Made by a program: the position numbers and the translations under genes. A DNA stretch of 64,000 nt from Chitinophaga pinensis (GTDB lineage: Bacteria; Bacteroidota; Bacteroidia; UKL13-3). Below, piece after piece: positions 6,589 through 42,186 of the stretch. The notes under the pieces are model-generated. The model was not told where the DNA came from. It searched no databases and saw only the letters and a program-made list of their open reading frames with translations. Numbering within the stretch: the stretch's first letter is position 1; every line of letters starts with the position of its first letter. Where the stretch lies: assembly GCA_945870425.1 (NCBI GenBank), contig CAMBSD010000012.1, positions 2,923 through 66,922 on the forward strand. Reading direction: 5' to 3'.

Positions 6589-6738
6589 CTTGCTTTTCGT
6601 TATATATCATCAAACATTGAACTATCAAAACAAAATATTAATTTCAAATTAGATTAGCAACTATGTTGTTCCGTAAATGACAAGGCTAATATATATTTGC
6701 CTTTTACAAAAAACCTTATCAATCAATAATTTCATCAC

Positions 6739-7203
6739 ATGAAAAAAATTCAGATTTGCTTATTGCTAGCTTGCTTCATATTACTATTTGCCTGTTCACA
6801 TTATGATAGCCTTCAAAAAAATGGAAAAGTAAGTGATACTAATAAAAAAAGTCATAACAGTGGTCAAGATTGTATGAGTTGTCATGGGAAAGAAATGAGT
6901 GAAGCTGCTAAAGAAGCATGGTGGAATGTGGCTGGGACGGTTTACAATAGTAATGGAGGATTGAATACCAATGCACGTATTGAACTTTGGACGGAACCGA
7001 ATGCCAAAGGTATAAAAATATTGAGTTTGAATACTGATAGAGATGCCAATTTTTATACTGAAAAAGCTGTCAACTTTAATGGAGGTTGCTACCCAATTGC
7101 TATAAGTGGAAATGATACCATGTATATGTCGAGCAAATTCAAAGGAACCGGATGCAACAGCTGCCACAACAATGTTACAACAAGCAAAATTTTTGTTAAC
7201 TAA
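6739..7203 (+). CDS. small lipoprotein with two CxxCH haem-c motifs
   Basis: Lipobox LLFAC at the N-terminus; CMSCH and CNSCH motifs near the two ends of a 154-aa protein. Confidence 0.6.
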   Translation: MKKIQICLLLACFILLFACSHYDSLQKNGKVSDTNKKSHNSGQDCMSCHGKEMSEAAKEAWWNVAGTVYNSNGGLNTNARIELWTEPNAKGIKILSLNTDRDANFYTEKAVNFNGGCYPIAISGNDTMYMSSKFKGTGCNSCHNNVTTSKIFVN

Positions 7204-7222
7204 TAAACCATAAAACCTCAAT

Positions 7223-8602
7223 ATGAAAGTAAAAATTACACTGTTATTTTTAGTAGGCTATAATTGTTTACTTGCACAAATCCCTCAAGCATTAAATGAC
7301 AATCTAAACCAAACCTATGATAGCCTATGCAATAAACTAAATTTGAAAGGTTCTTCGGCTGCTATTATTATACCGAATATGGGAACATGGAAGAGAAATT
7401 ACGGTATCTCACATATAGGAAAAAGTACTGATACCGAAATGCTTTTTACACTTGGCAGCAATACAAAAACCTATACTGCAACCGTGATTTTAAAGCTGCA
7501 TCAGATGGGCTTATTAAACTTAAATGATACTATAGGAAAATGGTTTAATAATGTAAAAAATGTTATAGGAAGTATTAAAGTCCAACAACTTCTTAATCAC
7601 ACAAGCGGTATTGCAGGCTATACTGATAACAGTGCTTTATGGACAGCAGTAAATACTAATCTTGGAAAAAATTGGACCATGGAAGAAATCTTGCCCTATA
7701 TAGGCACTCCTTCTTTTGCCCCAGGAAGCAATTGGGCTTATTCAAACTCAAATTTTTTGTTGGCAGGAATTATTATAAAACAAGTAACGGGTAAAACATT
7801 GGCAGATGCCTACCGCGCCTATATTTTCAATCCATGCAATTTATCAAAAACATTCCTATTGGCAGATGAGAGCGCTAATATGGATGTAGCGCATCATTGG
7901 AGTGTAAGGATTGGCAATACTTATTTAACAGATTGGGAAAGTCTAGGTCTAAGTTATATAGCCATGAATTCCGTGGCAAACGCTGCTGGAGGGCTTTACG
8001 CAACTGCTGAAGACAATGCTAAGTTTTATAATGCCTTGTTTAATACAAAAATCATCATTGCTGACAGCATGCTAGGAAAAATGAAAACGGTTAGAAACAT
8101 AGGTGGCGGTGCTGGTTATGGACTGGGTTTGTTTAGTTATTCAAATTTTAATGGAAGAACTGTTTACAGTCATGGAGGTACAAACTTGGGTGGCATAAAT
8201 GAGAATCTTTTTGACCCTCTAAACAATTGTAGCATATCAATCTTATCTAATCAAGATAGTGTTTCAAACAATCAATTATTGACACAAATAGTATTGAATT
8301 TACACAAACGGTTAATTTTGGCTAAGGCTAGTATCGAAGACATAGCCAAAGAATCAAGCGACAATTTTGAAGTATTTCCAAACCCTTCAAATGGTAAATT
8401 TAATTTTAGTTTTAAAGGCTTGAATGATGAAAAAATTGAACAAATTTTGTTATCAGATTTGAATGGTGAAAGCATCCAAAAATTCAGTGCTATCGACAAT
8501 GTTATTCAAATGCAATCAAAGCAAAATGGTGTATACGTATTAATAGTAAAACTAAGCTCTGGAAAAACCATTAGCCAAAAATTGGTATTGATAAATGATT
8601 AG
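7223..8602 (+). CDS. serine hydrolase (class C beta-lactamase / DD-peptidase fold) with a T9SS C-terminal sorting domain
   Basis: SxxK (GSNTKTYT) and YxN (YSNSN) motifs. The C-terminus FEVFPNPSNGKFNFSF...GVYVLIVKL..ISQKLVLIND is typical of a T9SS type A CTD. Confidence 0.75.
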   Translation: MKVKITLLFLVGYNCLLAQIPQALNDNLNQTYDSLCNKLNLKGSSAAIIIPNMGTWKRNYGISHIGKSTDTEMLFTLGSNTKTYTATVILKLHQMGLLNLNDTIGKWFNNVKNVIGSIKVQQLLNHTSGIAGYTDNSALWTAVNTNLGKNWTMEEILPYIGTPSFAPGSNWAYSNSNFLLAGIIIKQVTGKTLADAYRAYIFNPCNLSKTFLLADESANMDVAHHWSVRIGNTYLTDWESLGLSYIAMNSVANAAGGLYATAEDNAKFYNALFNTKIIIADSMLGKMKTVRNIGGGAGYGLGLFSYSNFNGRTVYSHGGTNLGGINENLFDPLNNCSISILSNQDSVSNNQLLTQIVLNLHKRLILAKASIEDIAKESSDNFEVFPNPSNGKFNFSFKGLNDEKIEQILLSDLNGESIQKFSAIDNVIQMQSKQNGVYVLIVKLSSGKTISQKLVLIND

Positions 8603-25386: not shown

Positions 25387-26538
25387 TTAGTGGTGTTCTT
25401 CATGATGATGTTCCTCTACTGCACTACCAAAATAGATAGCAGAAAGCAAAGTGAAAACATAGGCTTGAAGAAAGGCAACCAATAATTCTAAGAAACTCAT
25501 AAAGGTAGTAAAAGCTACTGAAAATGCCGATACACCGAATCCTAATCCAGTATTCATTTCAGCAAAAATGAAAATCAAACTAAAGAAACCTAAAATGATA
25601 ATATGTCCAGCTGTAATGTTAGCAAACAAACGAATGGTTAATACGATAGGTTTGTTTAGTACACCAATAATTTCGATAGGTATCATCAATGGTAATAACC
25701 AACCTGGCACACCTGGAGGCATAAAAATATGCGCCCAATAGTTTTTGTTACCATTAATCAAAGTGATTACAAATGTGAATGCTGCCAATACCATCGTAAC
25801 TGCGATATTACCTGTTACATTAGCTCCACCTGGGAAAATTGGTATTAAACCAAACATGTTATTAATGAAAATAAAGAAGAATATGGTTAACAAGAATGGC
25901 ATGAATCGATTGTATTGTTTGCCAATGGAAGGCTTGGCTACTTCATCGCGAATAAATATAATGAGCGGCTCAACAAACGATTGAATACCTTTTGGAGCTC
26001 TTAGTGCGTTTGATTTGTAGCTACCTGCAATTGACAACATGATAATTAATAGAACTATAACTGCTACAAACATGGCAAATACATTTTTGGTAATTGATAG
26101 GTCTAAAAACTCAGCACCTGCAAGATTTACCAATTTACCCTCTTTCAACTCATAACCCTCATAAGCCTCGTGGCCATGATGGAATTTGTTTGAAAGAAAC
26201 ACATGCAGGCCGTTATTGTCTTTTATGATTACAGGCAAAGGAATAGAGACGTGGGTATGGCCAATGGTAGCAATATGCCAATCATAAGCATCAGCGATGT
26301 GCTCCATGATTAATTTACCAGCATCTACCTTTTCAGTTTTATGCTCTTCGGTAGCTCCCTCATGAGAAGCTTCTCCGTGGGCAGTAGCTACTATTTCGCT
26401 ACTAGCATTTATTGCTGCTGAGTCAGTATGAACTTCGTGTTGCGCATTAGCAAGCTTTAATCCTGCATAAGTTACATACAAAACCACTAAAAAAGCGGGT
26501 ATTAAATATTTGGTTATCTTATACTTATTGCTAAACAT
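25387..26538 (-). CDS. atpB: F0 ATP synthase subunit a (with the long N-terminal extension common in Bacteroidota)
   Basis: LTIRLFANITAGH (essential Arg) and multiple TM helices. Confidence 0.9.
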   Translation of the reverse strand: MFSNKYKITKYLIPAFLVVLYVTYAGLKLANAQHEVHTDSAAINASSEIVATAHGEASHEGATEEHKTEKVDAGKLIMEHIADAYDWHIATIGHTHVSIPLPVIIKDNNGLHVFLSNKFHHGHEAYEGYELKEGKLVNLAGAEFLDLSITKNVFAMFVAVIVLLIIMLSIAGSYKSNALRAPKGIQSFVEPLIIFIRDEVAKPSIGKQYNRFMPFLLTIFFFIFINNMFGLIPIFPGGANVTGNIAVTMVLAAFTFVITLINGNKNYWAHIFMPPGVPGWLLPLMIPIEIIGVLNKPIVLTIRLFANITAGHIIILGFFSLIFIFAEMNTGLGFGVSAFSVAFTTFMSFLELLVAFLQAYVFTLLSAIYFGSAVEEHHHEEHH

Positions 26539-33769: not shown

Positions 33770-34078
33770 TAATTAATTCCTAATTCCCTGTCACCCTGAG
33801 CCTGTCGAATGGGTGAACGAATGCCTCAAATTTCCTCTTGCCTAAATCCTCTCTCCTCCCTTAACCACAAAGCCCACAGAGAATATACAACACAGAGGGC
33901 ACCAAGTTTACACTATTTCGTAATTCCTCATTCGCAATTCCTAACTCCCTGTCACCCTGAGCGGAGACGAATGGGTGAACGAATGCCTCAAATTTCCTCT
34001 TGCCTAAATCCTCTCTCCTCCATTAACCACAAAGCCCACAGAGAATATATAACACAGAGGGCACCAAGATTTTTCAGT
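33770..34078. repeat. two tandem copies of a ~161-bp composite repeat
   Basis: GTCACCCTGA at 33790 and 33951. Each unit is CTGTCACCCTGAGC..GAATGGGTGAACGAATGCCTCAAATTTCCTCTTGCC...CCACAAAGCCCACAGAGAATATA.AACACAGAGGGCACCAAG. Confidence 0.85.
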
Positions 34079-34087
34079 TACCACCTG

Positions 34088-34870
34088 TCAATTAATAACC
34101 ACAAATGAGAAATTCTTCACCCTCCGTTCGTCAGGGCTTATGGAATATATCCAATGCAAAATATCGTTCATATTTTCTTTGCCAGTAAATGGTATGTTGT
34201 TCTTTGTAAATACAAATATCAAATTATCTAATTCATTCTCTTTTTTCAGGTCTAATGAGTAGGCAATGCCTTTGTTTACTGGAAAGTGAATATGTTCAGA
34301 TTCCTTTATGTTATTAGCCTTTTCATATTGATTGGGAAATAATTGAAGGCATTGGCTATCGCTTAATAAAAATATTCTGAGGAAGCCATTCGCATAAGCA
34401 ATGGTTTCAAATGTCAGTGCTTCGTTGGCTTTATATGATTCCCTAATTCCTTTGATGTCAAACACAAAAGCAGGGTCACTTTTCTTTTCGTATTTTATGA
34501 CATCGGCATCAATTAAAGCTTCGTAATAATCTTGTTGGGCGCTTTCATCATGCTTTTTTTGCGTGCGAATATTTTGAATGTTTGTAATAGCCCCACTTAA
34601 CTCAACACTTGCGATGGAGTTAAAAACTTGAGAGATTTTCTTATTATTTTCTGTGGTTAGCAACACATTGCTCGAGCCAATGTATTCAGCAATTCCCGCT
34701 TTTTTCAAAGCATCTTTCTTGGCTTCTTCTATGGCATTGTCTTTTGTTTGGTTAGCCGTTTTATCATCCGATGTATAAGCTTTGCCCACAGCATCTTTTA
34801 TAAACAGCGTTTTTTGTGCAAATGCCAATTGGCAAACAAAAAACAAAATGATGAAAACAGAATACTTCAT
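34088..34870 (-). CDS. secreted protein, C-terminal DUF4384-like domain (frequent caspase partner)
   Basis: Signal peptide MKYSVFIILFFVCQLAFA. The start codon lies 1 nt after the stop of the caspase gene. The domain call is from memory of the family and is not verified. Confidence 0.45.
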   Translation of the reverse strand: MKYSVFIILFFVCQLAFAQKTLFIKDAVGKAYTSDDKTANQTKDNAIEEAKKDALKKAGIAEYIGSSNVLLTTENNKKISQVFNSIASVELSGAITNIQNIRTQKKHDESAQQDYYEALIDADVIKYEKKSDPAFVFDIKGIRESYKANEALTFETIAYANGFLRIFLLSDSQCLQLFPNQYEKANNIKESEHIHFPVNKGIAYSLDLKKENELDNLIFVFTKNNIPFTGKENMNDILHWIYSISPDERRVKNFSFVVIN

Positions 34871-34871
34871 A

Positions 34872-37157
34872 CTAATATTTAATAAATGCTTTTTCTTTCA
34901 TATCACCTGTAATGGTTGGGTGCTGCTCTATGCCATGTATGCGTGCAGCTTGGTATGGAACACCTTCGTTTCTGTCTGACACATATTCATACAATTCTTG
35001 ATAGGTAAGCGTTCCATCATGGTTTTTATCTGAATGCTCTTTGTCCTGTATGGCTTTCAAAAAGAAATAGGTAAACATACCATGTTGCTTTTCGTCATAC
35101 CAAGTAGATACTTCAGTGCCCGATGAAGAAGCAATAACCACCGCATTTTTCATGGTTAAAACAGGGTCAATAACTTTTATGGTTAAAGGACTTATTTTAT
35201 CAAACACATTAGCCCCCGAGAAACAAGCATCCAACACAATGGTTAAGGATTTTGCTTTAAGCTACGCCAAGTTTTGATAAAACACATCCAAGGAATAACC
35301 ACTGTTTTCAACATAATTGGGGTTGCACTCAACAGGCACAAAATAACCCTTGTTGTCTTTTAAGCCGGGAGCACCATGCCCTGCATAAAAAATAAATACA
35401 TCAGATAAGTTTTCTTTGATAGTGTTTGCCAATCTACCTTTTTGATTCTCTTTAGTACCAAACAAGGTATTAAAATCGCCAAGGGTAGCGTTTTCTTTAA
35501 ACAAAATATTACCTTCTTTAAACCCTAACACATTGATTAAATAATTCTTCATGCTTTGCGCATCGCTTATGGCGTAGGCTACCGATTTGGTATTTGCATA
35601 ATTGCTATTACCAATAATTACTGCTATGGAATTGGTATTATTACCATTGGCAATTGGCAAATTTTTATCAATATCTGATAACAATGAAACACTTTTTATT
35701 TCAATACTTTCTTGTTTAGTGCCCTGCACAATAATTTCGTTTTGCTGTTTAAGTTCGGTGTTTAGTTGTACTGTGTAGGTCTTGCTTTCTCCATATTTAC
35801 CATAGCTTTCGGTAATGTCTATCGTAACAGGAATATTGTTTTGCTTATAAATTCTGTTAGGGAAAAAATCAAAATTAATAACTTTACTTTCGTTTGGTTT
35901 AAGTAACGGAATGTTAAACTCTGTTTCGCCCGCGGCAAACACATTAGATGGAGGCAATGTACATACTATCTTTACATTTTTAGCTTCGCCTTGCCCTTTG
36001 TTTTGCACCGCAAAGTTAAGATTGATTACTTCTCCTAACTTAGCGATACCACCTTTTTCGCTACTGAAATTATAATCTACTACCGATACCAAAGGATTTA
36101 AAAACTTGGCTGTTTCTACATGTATTATTTCGTCAGGGGCATCAAAGCCATTGGCTTCTTTGGTTTTGATGATAAATTTCACATTGGCATTTTCTGTGTT
36201 AAAATCTGATGTGATTGGGATAACAATTTGTTTTTCTTCGTTAGGAGCAAGCTCATCTATCTTGTATTCTTTTTGGTAGCTTATCCCTTTTATTGTTTGT
36301 TCAGTGCTTAGCGAAATCACAATACCATAAGCACTCCCCTTCCCTGTGTTTTTGAGTTGAAAGCTAATTTGGGATTGTTCGTTAACGTCAATTATTCTAT
36401 TGTTATTAAATTTTTTATCAGAAAAAGAAAGATCATTAATAGAAATCAAAGGAGGCTGAAAAGGTTTTTTTTTCAACCAAAGTGCAGAATTAATTACAAT
36501 AGAGTTATTGAATTCAACAGTTTTTCTTTTAAACTCAAAGGAAAAATCCTTAAATTCTGTTAATTTAGGATAATTAAATTTTAATAAATCAATTTTTAAA
36601 GTACCATATTTATCTGTAGTTAACTTTACTTTACTTCCATTAGAATGCACTGTAACAGATTTATTCTTCAGAGGTTTATAATCTAGCTTTTTAAATTCAT
36701 CTGGGCCTCTTTCTAAATTATATTTATAGTAATACTTTGGATAATCTTTTTTGTAATCTAAAAAAAGCAAAGACCAGCTTGATACACCTAAAAGGATTAG
36801 AGGGGTGGGATTAATATTTTCAAGAGGTGCTAAAAGACCCATTACAGTAAAGAATCCGCCCAAAAATGTGCCTAAAAAACTCCAACCACCATCTTTGTGT
36901 TTATATTTATAATTAAAGTAATAATTACTTTTTAAGACTTGCGTTTTATATAGTGTGTATTCTGAATTTTCAACATTAACAAGCAAAAATGGTTCTTTTT
37001 CAGAAGGATTCTGTTTTAAGGTAACATTATACGAATTGCCTACCACTTTTGATGAATTTGGGTTTATTTTAGGCTCCGATACATTTGTTGATGAAACTAA
37101 AGTCCTGCAATTGCTTAAAATAAGCACTAAACATAATATGTATATTATCTTTTTCAT
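34872..37157 (-). pseudogene. lipoprotein-anchored CARDB-repeat caspase-family (peptidase C14) protein interrupted by one in-frame TAG
   Basis: ORFs 35262..37157 and 34872..35237 are in the same frame: ..FIFYAGHGAP..VFYQNLA-TAG(35264-35262)-LKAKSLTIVLDACFSG... The His (AGHG) and Cys (DACFSG) of the catalytic dyad fall on opposite sides of the stop. Lipobox LILSNC, a TM hairpin, and CARDB-like repeats (NLNFAVQNKGQGEAKNVKI). Confidence 0.7.
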
Positions 37158-37303
37158 TCACAAATTTATTAACCGAACAAGCGATGGGATATCAACCACC
37201 AAATGCAAAATACACTTATAATTTTGTTTAAATGCAAAATTACATGCAAATATTGTTAGTAATAAAAACAGAATATCTTTTATAGATGATGGCATGTCGT
37301 CAT

Positions 37304-38077
37304 TTATGTCAATTCTTCTATTATTATCAATCCAGAAACACATGAAGGTTCAATATGGATTGTGTCAAGTTTAAATTTAAATTCAAACTGCTTTTTGTAT
37401 GAATTATTTGCTATGTCTTGATATACAATTGAAAGTTTCAAAGATGGAAATTTATCGAAATACTCTGTCTTATTTTGTTTATGAGTTAGAGATAATACAA
37501 ATGCATTAAACATGGAGAGATAAATAGACGGTAGTTTTAATTTAAATGAATTATCTTCTCTCGGTATAAAAATTTCGCTATAACATATATCTGATTTAGC
37601 AATACTAAAACCCAAAGGTACTATTCCATATTTAGCTTCAAAACTCAACCCATTCTTTTCTAAATCAAGCGTTTCAACTTTCACTTCTCCAATGCTATGA
37701 AGCACATTTATGATTTTTCTATCATCAATTTTATAACTAAATCTTATGTTTTTAGCAGTACCTACGCCAATATTGAAAAGGTCAATATCAAATTTGTGAT
37801 ATGCTTTACTCTCAATCTGAATTGTATCAGTTAATCTAGTGTCATGCCAGTGCAAATATTCAAAATTATTTATGGTTGTATCTTTATAAAGATAAAATCT
37901 TTTTTCATTACGCAATATTAAGTTTGGCATATTGCTCTGTACCCTCTGTTTTTTCATTTCCAAAACTGTGTAGAATGTTGCTAAGGCAGTAATGAAAGTT
38001 ACTACTAAAACCCAATCAATCTGATTTAAAATGCAGCTAATTGTAAGTAAGTTTTTGTACAACGTTTCCATACACAC
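37304..38077 (-). CDS. orphan membrane-anchored protein (257 aa), no recognisable domain
   Basis: Intact ORF, very AT-rich, with one N-terminal TM (WVLVVTFITALATFYTVL) followed by beta-rich sequence. Confidence 0.5.
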   Translation of the reverse strand: MCMETLYKNLLTISCILNQIDWVLVVTFITALATFYTVLEMKKQRVQSNMPNLILRNEKRFYLYKDTTINNFEYLHWHDTRLTDTIQIESKAYHKFDIDLFNIGVGTAKNIRFSYKIDDRKIINVLHSIGEVKVETLDLEKNGLSFEAKYGIVPLGFSIAKSDICYSEIFIPREDNSFKLKLPSIYLSMFNAFVLSLTHKQNKTEYFDKFPSLKLSIVYQDIANNSYKKQFEFKFKLDTIHIEPSCVSGLIIIEELT

Positions 38078-38120
38078 AAATGTAAAAATGTTTTGCTATT
38101 TTCTTGCATTTGTAGAGACC

Positions 38121-38312
38121 CCATCAACTATGCGTAGTCTATAGCCAAGCCATAACCCCAACTATGCGTAGTCTGTAGACAAGCCATAGCGTTGCGACTA
38201 TGCATTTCAAATGAATTAGAGTTTGTAACTCGGTAAAAGAATAAAAAGGCTTGGTTTAGTCAATCTGTACTCCACATAGACATTCGACATGATTGGCTTA
38301 GAACCGCGCATT
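38121..38312 (+). repeat. structured intergenic repeat family, locus a (partial copy plus full ~155-bp copy)
   Basis: CCCCAACTATGCGTAGTCTGTAGaCAAGCCATAGCGTTGCGACTATGCATTTCAAATGaAtTAGAGTTTGTAACTCGGTAAAA ... CATTCGACA. Confidence 0.85.
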
Positions 38313-38404
38313 ACAAATGAAAAAGAGTTTTTAACTTAACAAAAAAATAGGATGTTTAAATTTTAATTTTTAGTATTTTTGTATGACCTTTACAATAAGT
38401 AAAA

Positions 38405-38632
38405 ATGAGAACAATACAGTTAAACATACCTGATGAAGTAGATTTAAAAGATTATGATTTTACTATGATAATTGCCTCTAAACTATACGAAGAGGGTGCA
38501 CTTACTTCTGGGCAAGCTGCACAAATGGCAGGATTGTCGAAAAGAACCTTTATAGAATTACTTGGCAGATATGGTGTTTCGGTATTTAGCAAATCTATTT
38601 CAGATTTACATTCAGATATAACCAATGCCTAG
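38405..38632 (+). CDS. UPF0175-family antitoxin-like protein
   Basis: 75 aa; the LYEEGALTSGQAAQMAGLSKRTFIELLGRYGVSVF helix-turn-helix is typical of UPF0175. Confidence 0.7.
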   Translation: MRTIQLNIPDEVDLKDYDFTMIIASKLYEEGALTSGQAAQMAGLSKRTFIELLGRYGVSVFSKSISDLHSDITNA

Positions 38633-39066
38633 TATAGTTATTTCTGATACAAGCAGTTTAATTCTCTTTGATAAAATTTTATTAGAGATGTTTATGACAC
38701 AATAATTACTACTCATGAAATAGCTGAAGAGTTTGGAGAAACACTGCCACATTGGATAGAAATAAAAGCTGTAACTGATAAAAATATCAGTTATTTTTAG
38801 AAACTCAAGTTGATATTGGAGAAGCAAGTGCTATTGCTTTAGCTAAAGAAATTGAAAATAGTCTTTTGTTATTAGATGATTTAAAAGCAAGAAAATTGGC
38901 GGGTAAACTTCATATCAAATATACAGGTACTTTGGGTGTTATTAATAAAGCAAAGCAACTAGGTTTGATTGATAAAATAAAACCCTTAATTGACAAATTA
39001 TTGTTAACTGATTTTAGAATTTCAGAAAACATTATACAAGAGTTGCTGAGAATAAATAATGAATAG
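38625..39066 (+). pseudogene. DUF3368 (PIN-like) toxin gene with two frameshifts
   Basis: ATG overlaps the antitoxin stop (ATGCCTAG). Three frames are needed: MPSIVISDTSSLILFDKI.. / ..DVYDTIITTHEIAEEFGETLPHWIEIKAVTD.. / ..LETQVDIGEASAIALAKEIENSLLLLDDLKARKLAGKLHIKYTGTLGVINKAK... Confidence 0.75.
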
Positions 39067-39145
39067 ATGAAAGTGTATTTTGCCTACAGGTGTTTCTGGG
39101 TAAAATACCAAGCATTGGCAAAAGATTTTAAGAGGTTTTAAATGT

Positions 39146-39390
39146 TCCCCAACTATGCGTAGTCTCTAGCCAAGCCATAGCGTTGCGACTAAGCATTTCA
39201 AATGGAAAAGAGTTTGTAACTCGGTAAAAAACAAAAGGTGATGGTTACTCTATATAGCCTCAGTTCAGCCATTCGACAAGCTCAGGCTGACAGCCGCACA
39301 TTTAAAATAGTTTTAACCAACTATACGTAGTCTGTAGCCAAGCCATTGCGTTGCGACTACGCATTTCAAATGCAATAGAGTTTGTAACTC
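39146..39390 (+). repeat. structured intergenic repeat family, loci b (full) and c (core)
   Basis: Cores at 39146-39230 and 39316-39390. The tail motif GCCATTCGACAAGCTCAGGCTGACAGCCGCACA lies at 39267-39299. Confidence 0.85.
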
Positions 39391-39495
39391 GCTTATCTTT
39401 ATTACTTTCGAGATATATTGCATCGGAGACACTACAATTCATTTATTCATTAAATATCTTTAGGGCGCTTTGCTAACTCTAAGGATAGTTGGGCG

Positions 39496-39752
39496 AATTA
39501 ATTTAGCTCAGAACAGAATTAATTAAGTAAAAAGTAGAATTAATTTAACTCAGAACAAAACTAATTCAGTTGATTAAGTGAACTAATTCAGCAAAAAGTA
39601 GAATTGATATAGATCAAACCAGAATTAATTCAGTAAAAAGTAGAAATAACTTAACTCAGAACAGAACTAATTCAGTTGATTAAGTGCACTAATTCAGCAA
39701 AAAGTAGAATTGATATAGCTCAGAGCGGAATTAATTCAGTAAAAAGTAGAAT
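39496..39752 (+). repeat. AT-rich higher-order tandem repeat (42-nt and 64-nt subunits; 106-bp unit x2 plus a partial unit)
   Basis: 39537-39642 closely matches 39643-39748. About 7 copies of A(A/C)TAATTCAG, and 5 copies of AAAAAGTAGAA. Confidence 0.9.
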
Positions 39753-39766
39753 TAGATCCTTCACTA

Positions 39767-39838
39767 CCCAACTATGCCCAGTCTGTCGCCAAGCCATAGC
39801 GCTGCGACTAAACAACTAAAATTGAAAAGAGTTTGCTC
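39767..39838 (+). repeat. structured intergenic repeat family, locus d (diverged core)
   Basis: CCCAACTATGCCCAGTCTGTCGCCAAGCCATAGCGCTGCGACTAA...AAAAGAGTTTGCTC. Confidence 0.7.
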
Positions 39839-40021
39839 TATTATAGGTCTGGCAAGCCCTTCTATTTGTTCCACAGGGCATCTTGATTAAAGATAAATGC
39901 ATATATCTGCTATACATACTACAAGCTAGCTTTTCAGTGAAGTAGTGTGTTCCACCCGACAAATAAGAAATAAAAATGTAGGAAGAAATTATCTACATCA
40001 CAAAAAACAATCATATAAAAA

Positions 40022-41255: not shown

Positions 41256-41408
41256 CCCCAACTATGCTTAGTCTGTATCCAAGCCATTGGGTTGCGACTA
41301 TGCATTTCAAATGGAATAGAGTTTATAACTCGGTAAAATAAATTGAGTTGGATTTCTTAATCTGTCCTTTGTACAGCCATTCGACAAGTTCTGGCTTACA
41401 GCCTCACA
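41256..41408 (+). repeat. structured intergenic repeat family, locus e (full ~155-bp copy)
   Basis: CCCCAACTATGCTTAGTCTGTATCCAAGCCATTGGGTTGCGACTATGCATTTCAAATGGAATAGAGTTTATAACTCGGTAAAA ... GCCATTCGACAAGTTCTGGCTTACAGCCTCACA. Confidence 0.85.
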
Positions 41409-41427: not shown

Positions 41428-41766
41428 CTAATCATTAAGTAAACTTGTTACTTCTTCTTTAAGCTTTGGTAAATGATTAATAACTATTCCCCAAATGATA
41501 TCATCTGAAACGGTATCGTAGCCATTTGCAATTCTATTGCGGGTGTCAATTATTTTCCTAGAATTGCTAATATTAATTGCATTGTCTAATTTAATAATTC
41601 TATTTATAGCCTCACCAATAATTGTTAAATTCCTTTCAACTGCACGTTTGGTTTTTGTATCTGTAATAAATTCATCAAATCTTTTTGGTTTATTGTCAAA
41701 AAAACTTTCAATTTCGTTAATAGCCTTAATGATATCGAACAAATACGTTTTAATTTCATCAACCAT
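41428..41766 (-). CDS. hepT: HepT-like (DUF86 / HEPN) toxin homologue with Asn in place of the HEPN His
   Basis: 112 aa. The HEPN R-x4-H region reads TRNRIANGYDTVSDDIIWGIV (N81, codon 41526-41524). Overlaps the upstream MNT gene by 8 nt. Confidence 0.7.
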   Translation of the reverse strand: MVDEIKTYLFDIIKAINEIESFFDNKPKRFDEFITDTKTKRAVERNLTIIGEAINRIIKLDNAINISNSRKIIDTRNRIANGYDTVSDDIIWGIVINHLPKLKEEVTSLLND

Positions 41767-42061
41767 AAATCAATTGTTTATTCTGTTCAATATTTCCTCG
41801 TAAATACGGATTATTAATAGCCTTGTTTTCTAACAAATCAATTTTTCTCTTCAAAATATCTTCCAATGAAAATTTAAAATCGAAAAAATTATCAGCATAA
41901 TTATTAAAATCGACACCTTCAAAATCTACTAATAAATCAATATCACTATTGGCTTTAAAATCTTTCGTTAATACCGAACCAAAGGCATATAGATTTTTAA
42001 CTTTATGTTGTTTACATAAAGATTCAATCGTTTTTATATTATGGTTAATTATTGCTTGCAT
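41759..42061 (-). CDS. mntA: MNT-type nucleotidyltransferase antitoxin (MntA-like)
   Basis: Starts at Met13 of ORF 41759..42097. The NTase motif is AFGSVLTKDFKANSDIDLLVDF (GS...DxD). Confidence 0.75.
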   Translation of the reverse strand: MQAIINHNIKTIESLCKQHKVKNLYAFGSVLTKDFKANSDIDLLVDFEGVDFNNYADNFFDFKFSLEDILKRKIDLLENKAINNPYLRGNIEQNKQLIYG

Positions 42062-42186
42062 GTTTTCAAAAGTAAAAAAATATAGTTCAATTCTCAACTT
42101 TTACATCCACCTCTAAGCCCTCCAAGAACGGGAATAAGATATTTACTAATTCTTAATTCCTCCTGCCTTACTCCTTTAACCCTCCC

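Follow-up and report, generated by a model that had tools for sequence, protein, structure and literature searches.

The CARDB-caspase gene on the minus strand of the 64-kb stretch of DNA analysed here (the window) is probably the allele that one strain carries of a conserved chromosomal gene encoding an exported caspase-like protease, in which a single recent nonsense mutation has converted a CAG (Gln) codon into TAG. Judged from its sequence, we propose that this allele is most likely a young loss-of-function variant, that is, an incipient pseudogene.

A premature TAG codon precedes the catalytic cysteine

The reading frame (34872..37157, minus strand) comprises 762 codons, namely 761 sense codons if the premature TAG is read and a natural TAG stop at 34874-34872, and translation of the window recovers one internal stop within it, as a first-pass annotation of this DNA had described. 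This stop lies at codon 632 (35264-35262, minus strand), in the context ...VFYQNLA*LKAKSLTIVLDACFSG.... The codon for the catalytic His594 (35378-35376, minus strand), part of a YAGHG motif, lies 5′ of the TAG, and the codon for the catalytic Cys645 (35225-35223, minus strand), part of an LDACFSG motif, lies 3′ of it and is untranslated in the present allele. Aligned with legumain (6xt5) and metacaspase-9 (8a53), both residues fall on the catalytic positions of those enzymes. The TAG separates His from Cys, which do not share one uninterrupted polypeptide, and the predicted truncated product is 631 aa long. On sequence grounds, the present allele is a member of peptidase C14 by descent, without an active protease.

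Translation is expected to stop at codon 632, past His594 and short of Cys645, and the truncated product would retain its putative anchor and both Ig-like CARDB spacers, but only half of the protease fold. Because this product would end before Cys645, an active protease should be impossible. The 129 codons downstream of the TAG have no start that carries an export signal, and thus their product probably could not rejoin the exported N-terminal fragment. It is also conceivable, if quite improbable, that the allele is a leaky hypomorph, through basal read-through of UAG-C by near-cognate tRNA-Gln, or that it encodes a split enzyme, in which a product re-initiated at GTG 35237 complements the N-terminal fragment. 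Near-cognate read-through of UAG in bacteria does often insert Gln, but basal read-through of stop codons is usually well below 1%. For a split enzyme speaks the GTG start of the ORF at 34872-35237, which the gene caller made a 121-aa gene; however, the re-initiated fragment would begin inside the strand 'IVLDAC' and would have no signal peptide, which would place it in a different compartment from the exported N-terminal fragment, and no orthologue has a split gene.

The first-pass annotation had considered it notable that the TAG falls exactly between the catalytic His and Cys, a position that does not go beyond chance. Of the single-base changes that could create a stop in the CARDB-caspase gene, 6.4% fall in the His-Cys interval, and since 85% fall at or before the Cys and so remove it, the placement of the TAG is not special.

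Related loci have a sense codon at the site

At the DNA level, 13 related loci were read; every one of them has a sense codon where the present allele has TAG, and the TAG is conserved in none. The codon is CAG or CAA (Gln) in ten close relatives and GAG or AAA in three distant ones; because the close relatives have these Gln codons, the TAG can be placed a single C-to-T step from CAG. The homologous proteins that were inspected likewise run uninterrupted through the site (seven of seven), the six close ones with Q. Loci L001, L002 and L005 are syntenic, with a gene order that begins at a DEAD helicase and continues through caspase, DUF4384, tsaE, S1/P1 nuclease, GT2 and LPG synthase to ruvC, and from this shared order we infer that their caspase genes are true orthologues. 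Compared with the syntenic L001, the 129 codons past the TAG have 5 synonymous changes and 1 non-synonymous change (dN/dS about 0.05), and the part of the gene upstream of the TAG has a dN/dS of 0.047. Given that no signal of decay is seen downstream of the TAG, the mutation appears to be recent. P0050 is an intact, full-length relative of 758 aa that shares this architecture, with 35% identity over the whole length.

The present gene resembles ordinary amber pseudogenes in its single C-to-T change from a conserved CAG, its otherwise intact frame, its unconserved stop and the decayed gene nearby, and it is unlike them in nothing but its membership of a poorly understood family. The second broken gene, 1.5 kb off, is a DUF3368 toxin gene with two frameshifts, and its presence indicates that gene decay occurs in this variable region. 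A recent nonsense pseudogene was the first of three options raised in the first-pass annotation, and it is the one that the Gln codons of the orthologues and the still intact downstream part favor.

Support for the base call

A Logan assembly of run ERR5863100 contains a contig that matches the window with 100% identity over 5573 nt, carries the same TAG and is continuous through the site, although it may stem from the same reads as the window's assembly, in which case it is not independent for the base call. This contig weakens the second option, a sequencing error, which we still carry as unlikely. Under that reading, an error of sequencing or consensus calling, or a minority variant picked by the assembler, gave rise to the TAG, while the organism itself would carry CAG and encode the full 761-aa protease. 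A systematic sequencing error, or a variant fixed in the sequenced sample alone, may also lie behind the TAG. The source assembly looks draft or metagenome-derived (contig 122,753 nt), the relatives are all MAGs, and the change is a single base in a gene that is otherwise flawless. In addition, a 38-nt pattern able to detect either allele was run against public metagenome contigs, a narrow test in that exact flanks were demanded, and gave a single other matching contig, which has CAG. Against an error, however, stand the same TAG from a second assembly pipeline and the rarity of consensus substitution errors at normal coverage.

TAG is a normal stop codon in the window

TAG terminates 13 of the 41 open stretches of at least 200 codons in the window, the natural end of the caspase gene itself included, and is thus a normal stop here. 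Elsewhere in the window, TAG interrupts no frame of gene size; one TAG-separated pair at 25469-25984 (plus strand), with stretches of 90 and 80 codons lying over a minus-strand gene, was set aside as spurious. The 64-kb window contains no suppressor tRNA, its sole tRNA being a tRNA-Met, and RNA folding around the TAG is unremarkable as a read-through signal (z = -2.2; 6 of 200 shuffled sequences fold equally well).

These observations bear on the third option, a conditional protease, in which the TAG would be kept as a switch and the full-length enzyme would be made only with an amber suppressor tRNA, for example one from a phage that has recoded TAG to Gln. Phages are documented to recode TAG to Gln by means of suppressor tRNAs, a trait reported to be particularly prevalent in those of Firmicutes and Bacteroidetes (PMC9523058). 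A Gln-inserting suppressor would give back the ancestral residue exactly, and, also in its favor, the downstream codons are intact. We nevertheless give this reading very little credence. A switch should be conserved, yet none of the 13 related loci has the TAG, and restoration of Gln is the automatic outcome of the commonest nonsense route, CAG to TAG. Because TAG is the normal stop for a third of the genes, a suppressor would act genome-wide rather than as a specific switch. The window's lack of a suppressor tRNA and the RNA fold also count against it, and export takes both the protein and its partner out of the compartment where infection would be sensed or aborted, a poor match for an intracellular phage sensor. 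TAG and Gln are indeed the codon and amino acid of genetic code 15 in crAss-like and other Bacteroidota phages (PMC9523058). Unlike code 15 genomes, which have many in-frame TAGs and their own suppressor tRNA, the present case involves one TAG in one host gene, in a window where TAG is a normal stop and no suppressor tRNA is encoded. Were the conditional reading true, an exported caspase-like protease would serve as a read-out of phage code switching.

Architecture of the CARDB-caspase

Profile searches recovered all three domain assignments of the first-pass annotation, namely C14, CARDB and DUF4384. The C-terminal peptidase C14 domain (caspase-like, clan CD; aa 505-761; 34875..35645, minus strand) is interrupted by the TAG and matches PF00656 on both sides of it, with 33.8 bits upstream (profile positions 3-101) and 21.9 bits downstream (profile positions 116-230), relative to a cutoff of 21.4. 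Intact relatives score 29-85 bits with the same profile. NCBI names relatives 'caspase family protein'; P0002 matches the NCBIfam model caspase_w_EACC1 with an E value of 4e-18, yet falls under that model's cutoff. Upstream of the protease domain lie two Ig-like CARDB domains (aa 238-349 and 357-465; 35763..36446, minus strand), detected as two stretches matching PF07705 in Pfam (37.3 bits vs a cutoff of 22.7, E 3e-9) and modeled by AF2 as two beta-sandwiches with pLDDT mostly 80-93, within a model of the 631-aa product that is multi-domain and has a pTM of 0.35.

The remaining N-terminal module (aa 1-240; 36438..37157, minus strand) is strain-specific. It begins with a signal peptide carrying a lipobox-like Cys17, followed by a beta-rich domain; a hydrophobic helical hairpin (aa 91-134) and a beta-sandwich (aa 141-223) complete it. 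The first-pass annotation had spoken of several CARDB-like repeats; CARDB is correct, but the number is two, with one more beta-sandwich in the N-module. As to its proposed lipoprotein signal, a hydrophobic h-region spans aa 1-22 and Cys17 is invariant in 9 aligned relatives, but the lipobox L-S-N-C is atypical in having Asn at -1, and the Pfam LPAM_1 match reaches only E 0.076. Similarly, the two-helix hairpin it described is found both by hydropathy (segments aa 94-112 and 118-134) and in the AF2 model, with membrane insertion a prediction. An exported location, which it had also put forward, is borne out by the signal-peptide and hydropathy analysis, and signal peptides are found in every N-terminal variant of the caspase and in the DUF4384 partner.

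We propose that in the intact system the protease would be exported through its signal peptide and held at the membrane by the lipid anchor and/or the hairpin, or by another N-module in other strains, and that it and the co-transcribed, secreted DUF4384 protein would act jointly, either in the periplasm or on the cell surface. The family has clear affinities with the bacterial caspase homologues (orthocaspases or metacaspase-like C14 proteins, clan CD), given the C14 match above cutoff and the aligned YAGHG/DACFSG dyad. Orthocaspases, cyanobacterial ones included, recurrently have WD40 and DUF4384 as accessory domains (PMC7475262). Unlike in orthocaspases, however, the protease here is C-terminal, following a signal peptide, a variable N-module and two CARDB domains, and is predicted to be exported; moreover, DUF4384 is a separate secreted protein rather than a fused domain, and the present allele is truncated before the Cys.

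The DUF4384 partner and neighboring genes

The secreted partner (260 aa; 34088..34870, minus strand) comprises a signal peptide, an alpha/beta N-domain with a weak FlgT_N-like match and a DUF4384 Ig-like beta-sandwich. Its match to DUF4384 (PF14326) covers profile positions 1-79 of 81 and, at 27.0 bits, lies exactly at the cutoff of 27; all 12 of 12 partner homologues have a precomputed PF14326 match, and the AF2 model places an Ig-like sandwich at aa 137-222. The ATG of the partner lies 1 nt past the natural TAG stop of the caspase gene, and 15 related loci have a caspase gene with a linked homologue of the partner, down to 34% identity, both of which agree with the operon-like coupling that the first-pass annotation had suggested. 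A Foldseek search of the partner against the PDB returned generic Ig-like folds only, with TM 0.2-0.3 (GbpA, ICAM-1, PapD-like chaperones and complement MG domains), and gave no functional lead. Because the partner contains only an alpha/beta domain and an Ig-like sandwich, with no catalytic signature, it would most simply be a binding partner, substrate or regulator of the protease.

DUF4384 is often fused to protease domains (bioRxiv 10.1101/2022.08.17.504292). The C-terminal DUF4384 of Csx30, from the type III-E CRISPR system (Craspase), is similar in being linked functionally to a caspase-like protease. Unlike Craspase, the present pair has no CRISPR or Cas7-11/Csx29 context and consists of exported proteins. 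PADLOC returned its generic 'caspase' model only (P0002, E 2.5e-10), with no match for the partner or for the upstream 257-aa protein. The latter is a predicted membrane protein with no family assigned (37304..38077, minus strand); it shares the strain-specific segment with the N-module, and its gene is absent from L001, L002 and L005. A 61-aa ORF at 37158-37343, which abuts the caspase start, has no family match and is taken as spurious intergenic or promoter DNA.

Exchange of the N-terminal module

Among near-identical strains, the N-terminal module encoded at this same locus differs, whereas the CARDB-caspase body is 88-92% identical and the locus flanks are 96-98% identical. The variants include a WD40 module, a small beta domain and the lipoprotein-hairpin module. 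The N-module of the present allele has no homology with the N-terminal parts of the syntenic orthologues; its own distant relatives are P0050-P0058, and when relatives of this module were scanned against Pfam, six of eight had a caspase domain. The more distant locus L003 encodes a homologue of one such N-module as a gene of its own, which lies upstream within the same cluster. Within the window, no silent copy of an alternative N-module (WD40 or P0002-type) and no second caspase copy was found. On a speculative reading, exchange of the N-module on a conserved body would represent selection-driven retargeting of a cell-surface protease.

Implications

For this freshwater Bacteroidota gene, the stop codon itself carries little weight and is best filed as a young nonsense allele, and it should therefore not be taken to show that host genes can rely on suppressor tRNAs from phages. 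Instead, it serves as a useful negative example, in that any CAG-to-TAG change will look 'restorable to wild type' by a Gln suppressor. The replacement of the N-module between strains, together with the occurrence of an N-module homologue as a separate gene at L003, suggests that a modular domain targets or anchors this extracytoplasmic protease. The gene family, in which an exported CARDB-caspase stands beside a secreted DUF4384 protein across Bacteroidota, may merit more attention than the stop codon.

A premature amber codon in the caspase gene

On the minus strand, 34872-37157 translates as one frame of 762 codons with exactly one internal stop, a TAG at 35264-35262 (codon 632, context GCG TAG CTT); no frameshift or second stop occurs in this frame, whose natural stop is also TAG. 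A mechanical ORF list divides it into 35262-37157 (631 aa) and 34872-35237. Pfam finds CARDB in two stretches (E 3e-9) of the upstream piece. Peptidase_C14 is shared between the pieces, its first half lying on the upstream one (33.8 bits, profile 3-101) and its second half on the downstream one (profile 116-230, 21.9 bits against a cutoff of 21.4). The catalytic His (codon 594, YAGHG motif) precedes the TAG and the catalytic Cys (codon 645, LDACFSG motif) follows it, both on the minus strand; in a PDB sequence search the two fall on the catalytic positions of legumain and metacaspase-9. The frame, the position of its stop and the domain assignments thus agree with the first-pass annotation, including the DUF4384 match of the following gene (34088-34870, minus strand), which at 27.0 bits equals its cutoff.

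The 631-aa product was modelled with AlphaFold from an alignment of 9 sequences (mean pLDDT 75.5). The model begins with a signal helix and a beta-rich domain (aa 18-82); a helical hairpin (aa 91-134) then leads to a beta-sandwich (aa 141-223) and two Ig-like domains (aa 238-349 and 357-465), and the chain ends in a disordered linker and half a caspase fold. Hydropathy also backs the signal peptide and two hydrophobic segments. Cys17 does not vary in the relatives aligned; the lipobox itself (L-S-N-C) is atypical, however, and matches LPAM_1 weakly.

The stop's placement between the dyad residues is not a designed-looking feature. A single base change can create a stop codon in this gene by 357 routes; only 6.4% of these lie in the His-Cys interval, but 85% lie at the Cys or ahead of it, so that most nonsense mutations here would remove that residue.

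Age and nature of the interruption

Searching with the read-through protein yields 49 relatives. Over the CARDB-caspase body, 14 of them are close (P0002-P0013, P0015, and P0014 at 61%). All seven relative proteins inspected are uninterrupted at the TAG site, and the six close ones among them read ...YQNL[A/G]QLK[A/V]KS..., with Gln in its place. The codon is CAG in related loci L001, L003/L004/L007, L006, L010, L011, L012 and L020, and CAA in L002 and L005; three distant relatives have GAG or AAA. The orthologue comparison that the first-pass annotation had proposed therefore returns a sense codon and no conservation of the TAG, which is one C-to-T transition from the CAG of relatives. The window, L001 (a 3.25-Mb JGI contig), L002 (GCA_027485105.1) and L005 have a common gene order: proline dehydrogenase, DEAD-box helicase, a variable segment, caspase, DUF4384, tsaE, S1/P1 nuclease, glycosyltransferase, LPG synthase and ruvC. 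With flanks 96-98.5% identical in DNA, the L001, L002 and L005 genes are true orthologues in close relatives, a group that lies among uncultured freshwater Bacteroidota MAGs.

Over the 129 codons after the TAG, the window and L001 differ by five synonymous changes and one non-synonymous change (dN/dS 0.05, against 0.047 upstream of the TAG), and this sole amino-acid difference (S/T) also occurs in other intact orthologues. The downstream part has thus not drifted, so the mutation is either recent or an error. We consider a sequencing error unlikely: the only other public metagenome contig matching a 38-nt pattern around the site has CAG, but the exact 631-aa product is recorded on two contigs, the window's own and a 5573-nt Logan contig of run ERR5863100 that is 100% identical to window 34039-39611, TAG included. 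A second assembly pipeline thus reproduces the base, possibly from the reads behind the window, which makes an assembler artefact unlikely but does not speak against a systematic read error. Gene decay in the variable segment of this strain is also real, since the DUF3368 (PIN-like) toxin of a UPF0175/DUF3368 pair, 1.5 kb upstream (38625-39063, plus strand; antitoxin gene adjoining at 38405-38629), is a pseudogene, with two frameshifts and in-frame stops when compared with the intact L005 copy (151 aa).

The first-pass annotation had also raised a conditional switch, in which the protease is completed only when the TAG is read through, for instance by a suppressor tRNA. A Gln-inserting amber suppressor, of the kind found in TAG-to-Gln recoded phages (PMC9523058), would restore the ancestral protein, as it would after any CAG-to-TAG mutation. 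The TAG occurs in no relative, RNA folding around it is unremarkable (z = -2.2), the protein and its partner are predicted to be exported, and PADLOC matches a generic caspase model only. ARAGORN finds only tRNA-Met in the window, and neither code 15 nor a suppressor leaves a sign in these 64 kb; TAG ends 13 of the 41 stop-to-stop stretches of at least 200 codons, and a single TAG interrupts no other gene-sized frame in the window. We regard the switch as extremely improbable. Re-initiation at GTG 35237 could instead yield a fragment that complements the exported N-fragment, but it would start inside the Cys-bearing strand without a signal peptide, probably leaving the two in different compartments. 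Functional readings of the broken gene, taken together, are very doubtful. The three readings first offered thus fare differently: the recent nonsense allele is supported, the error is disfavored and the switch is not borne out. We conclude that the observation is real but unremarkable, and that it is probably a young nonsense allele in a gene whose kind is already known.

Replacement of the N-terminal module

Homology between the window and L001 begins at window 36433 (codon 242). Ahead of this point lie four kinds of N-terminus at the same locus, joined to CARDB-caspase bodies 88-92% identical: the lipoprotein-hairpin type of the window, a small secreted beta domain (L001/P0002 and P0003), a WD40 propeller type (L005/P0004) and a second one about 36% identical to it (L002/P0009). 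These modules are unrelated in otherwise near-identical strains (window 36434-38143; L001 10001-10532; L002 6015-7064; L005 1403-2407), and the window holds no silent copies of the others. A 257-aa membrane protein of unknown family also lies within the strain-specific segment. The window module is not a junk fusion, for P0050-P0058 are distantly related to it. Pfam scans of eight of these show a caspase domain in six, five of which also have CARDB, and the window protein can be aligned with P0050 over the full length of both (35% identity). In L003, a separate 253-aa gene (6712-7473) that precedes the caspase gene in one cluster with it encodes an N-terminus with 39-40% identity to the P0002-type module, a fusion/fission pattern that ties the modules functionally to the protease.

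Divergence is mosaic within the body as well (window 34875-36433 versus L001 10533-12091): dS reaches 0.58 from CARDB to the His and 0.065 in the codons that follow the TAG, both parts being under strong purifying selection (dN/dS about 0.05). The pattern suggests recombination inside the gene.

A dispersed intergenic repeat of ~90 nt (CCCCAACTATGCGTAGTCTGTAG.CAAGCCATAGCGTTGCGACTATGCATTTCAAATG...), which looks REP/MITE-like, has 5-6 copies around the variable segment (38125-38245, 39147-39236, 39315-39404, 39766-39855, 41256-41345) and many in L001 intergenic DNA. The DEAD helicase gene is separated from the toxin-antitoxin remnant by a tandem array (39495-39754; 21-nt sub-period, 106-nt period; GAATTAATT.AG...), within which the Logan contig (L021) ends. 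The genes for proline dehydrogenase and the DEAD helicase flank a HepT-like RNase/MNT nucleotidyltransferase toxin-antitoxin pair (41431-42097, minus strand) that L001 lacks at the matching site. A 104-nt segment occurs twice, with a spacing of 162 nt, in the interval from the DUF4384 gene to tsaE (33806-34071); L001 has more copies, so copy number varies between strains. P0012 (476 aa, 1786-nt JGI contig) has an LptF/LptG-like permease N-terminus (PF03739) in frame with the second CARDB domain and caspase, which may reflect chimeric assembly or a true rearrangement.

The DUF4384 partner and the intact system

As first annotated, the DUF4384 gene starts (ATG) one base past the natural caspase stop. 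In close relatives it directly follows the caspase gene; distant ones have it on the same strand, no more than a few kb away (identity down to 34%), which supports a functional link. In the partner model (mean pLDDT 77.8), a signal peptide is followed by an alpha/beta domain, for which there is a weak FlgT_N-like match, and by an Ig-like sandwich; Foldseek with this model returned generic Ig-like matches only. DUF4384 is an accessory domain of orthocaspases (PMC7475262), is often fused to proteases and forms the C-terminal domain of some Csx30 proteins (bioRxiv 10.1101/2022.08.17.504292). The minimal family form (P0014 and P0016, about 560 aa) has a signal peptide, CARDB domains and caspase. 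We propose that the intact protein would be an extracytoplasmic, membrane-tethered cysteine protease working with the secreted DUF4384 protein, which may be its binding partner, substrate or regulator. The amber codon itself is of low interest; a separate, modest lead lies in the modularity of the N-terminus in this exported caspase family.
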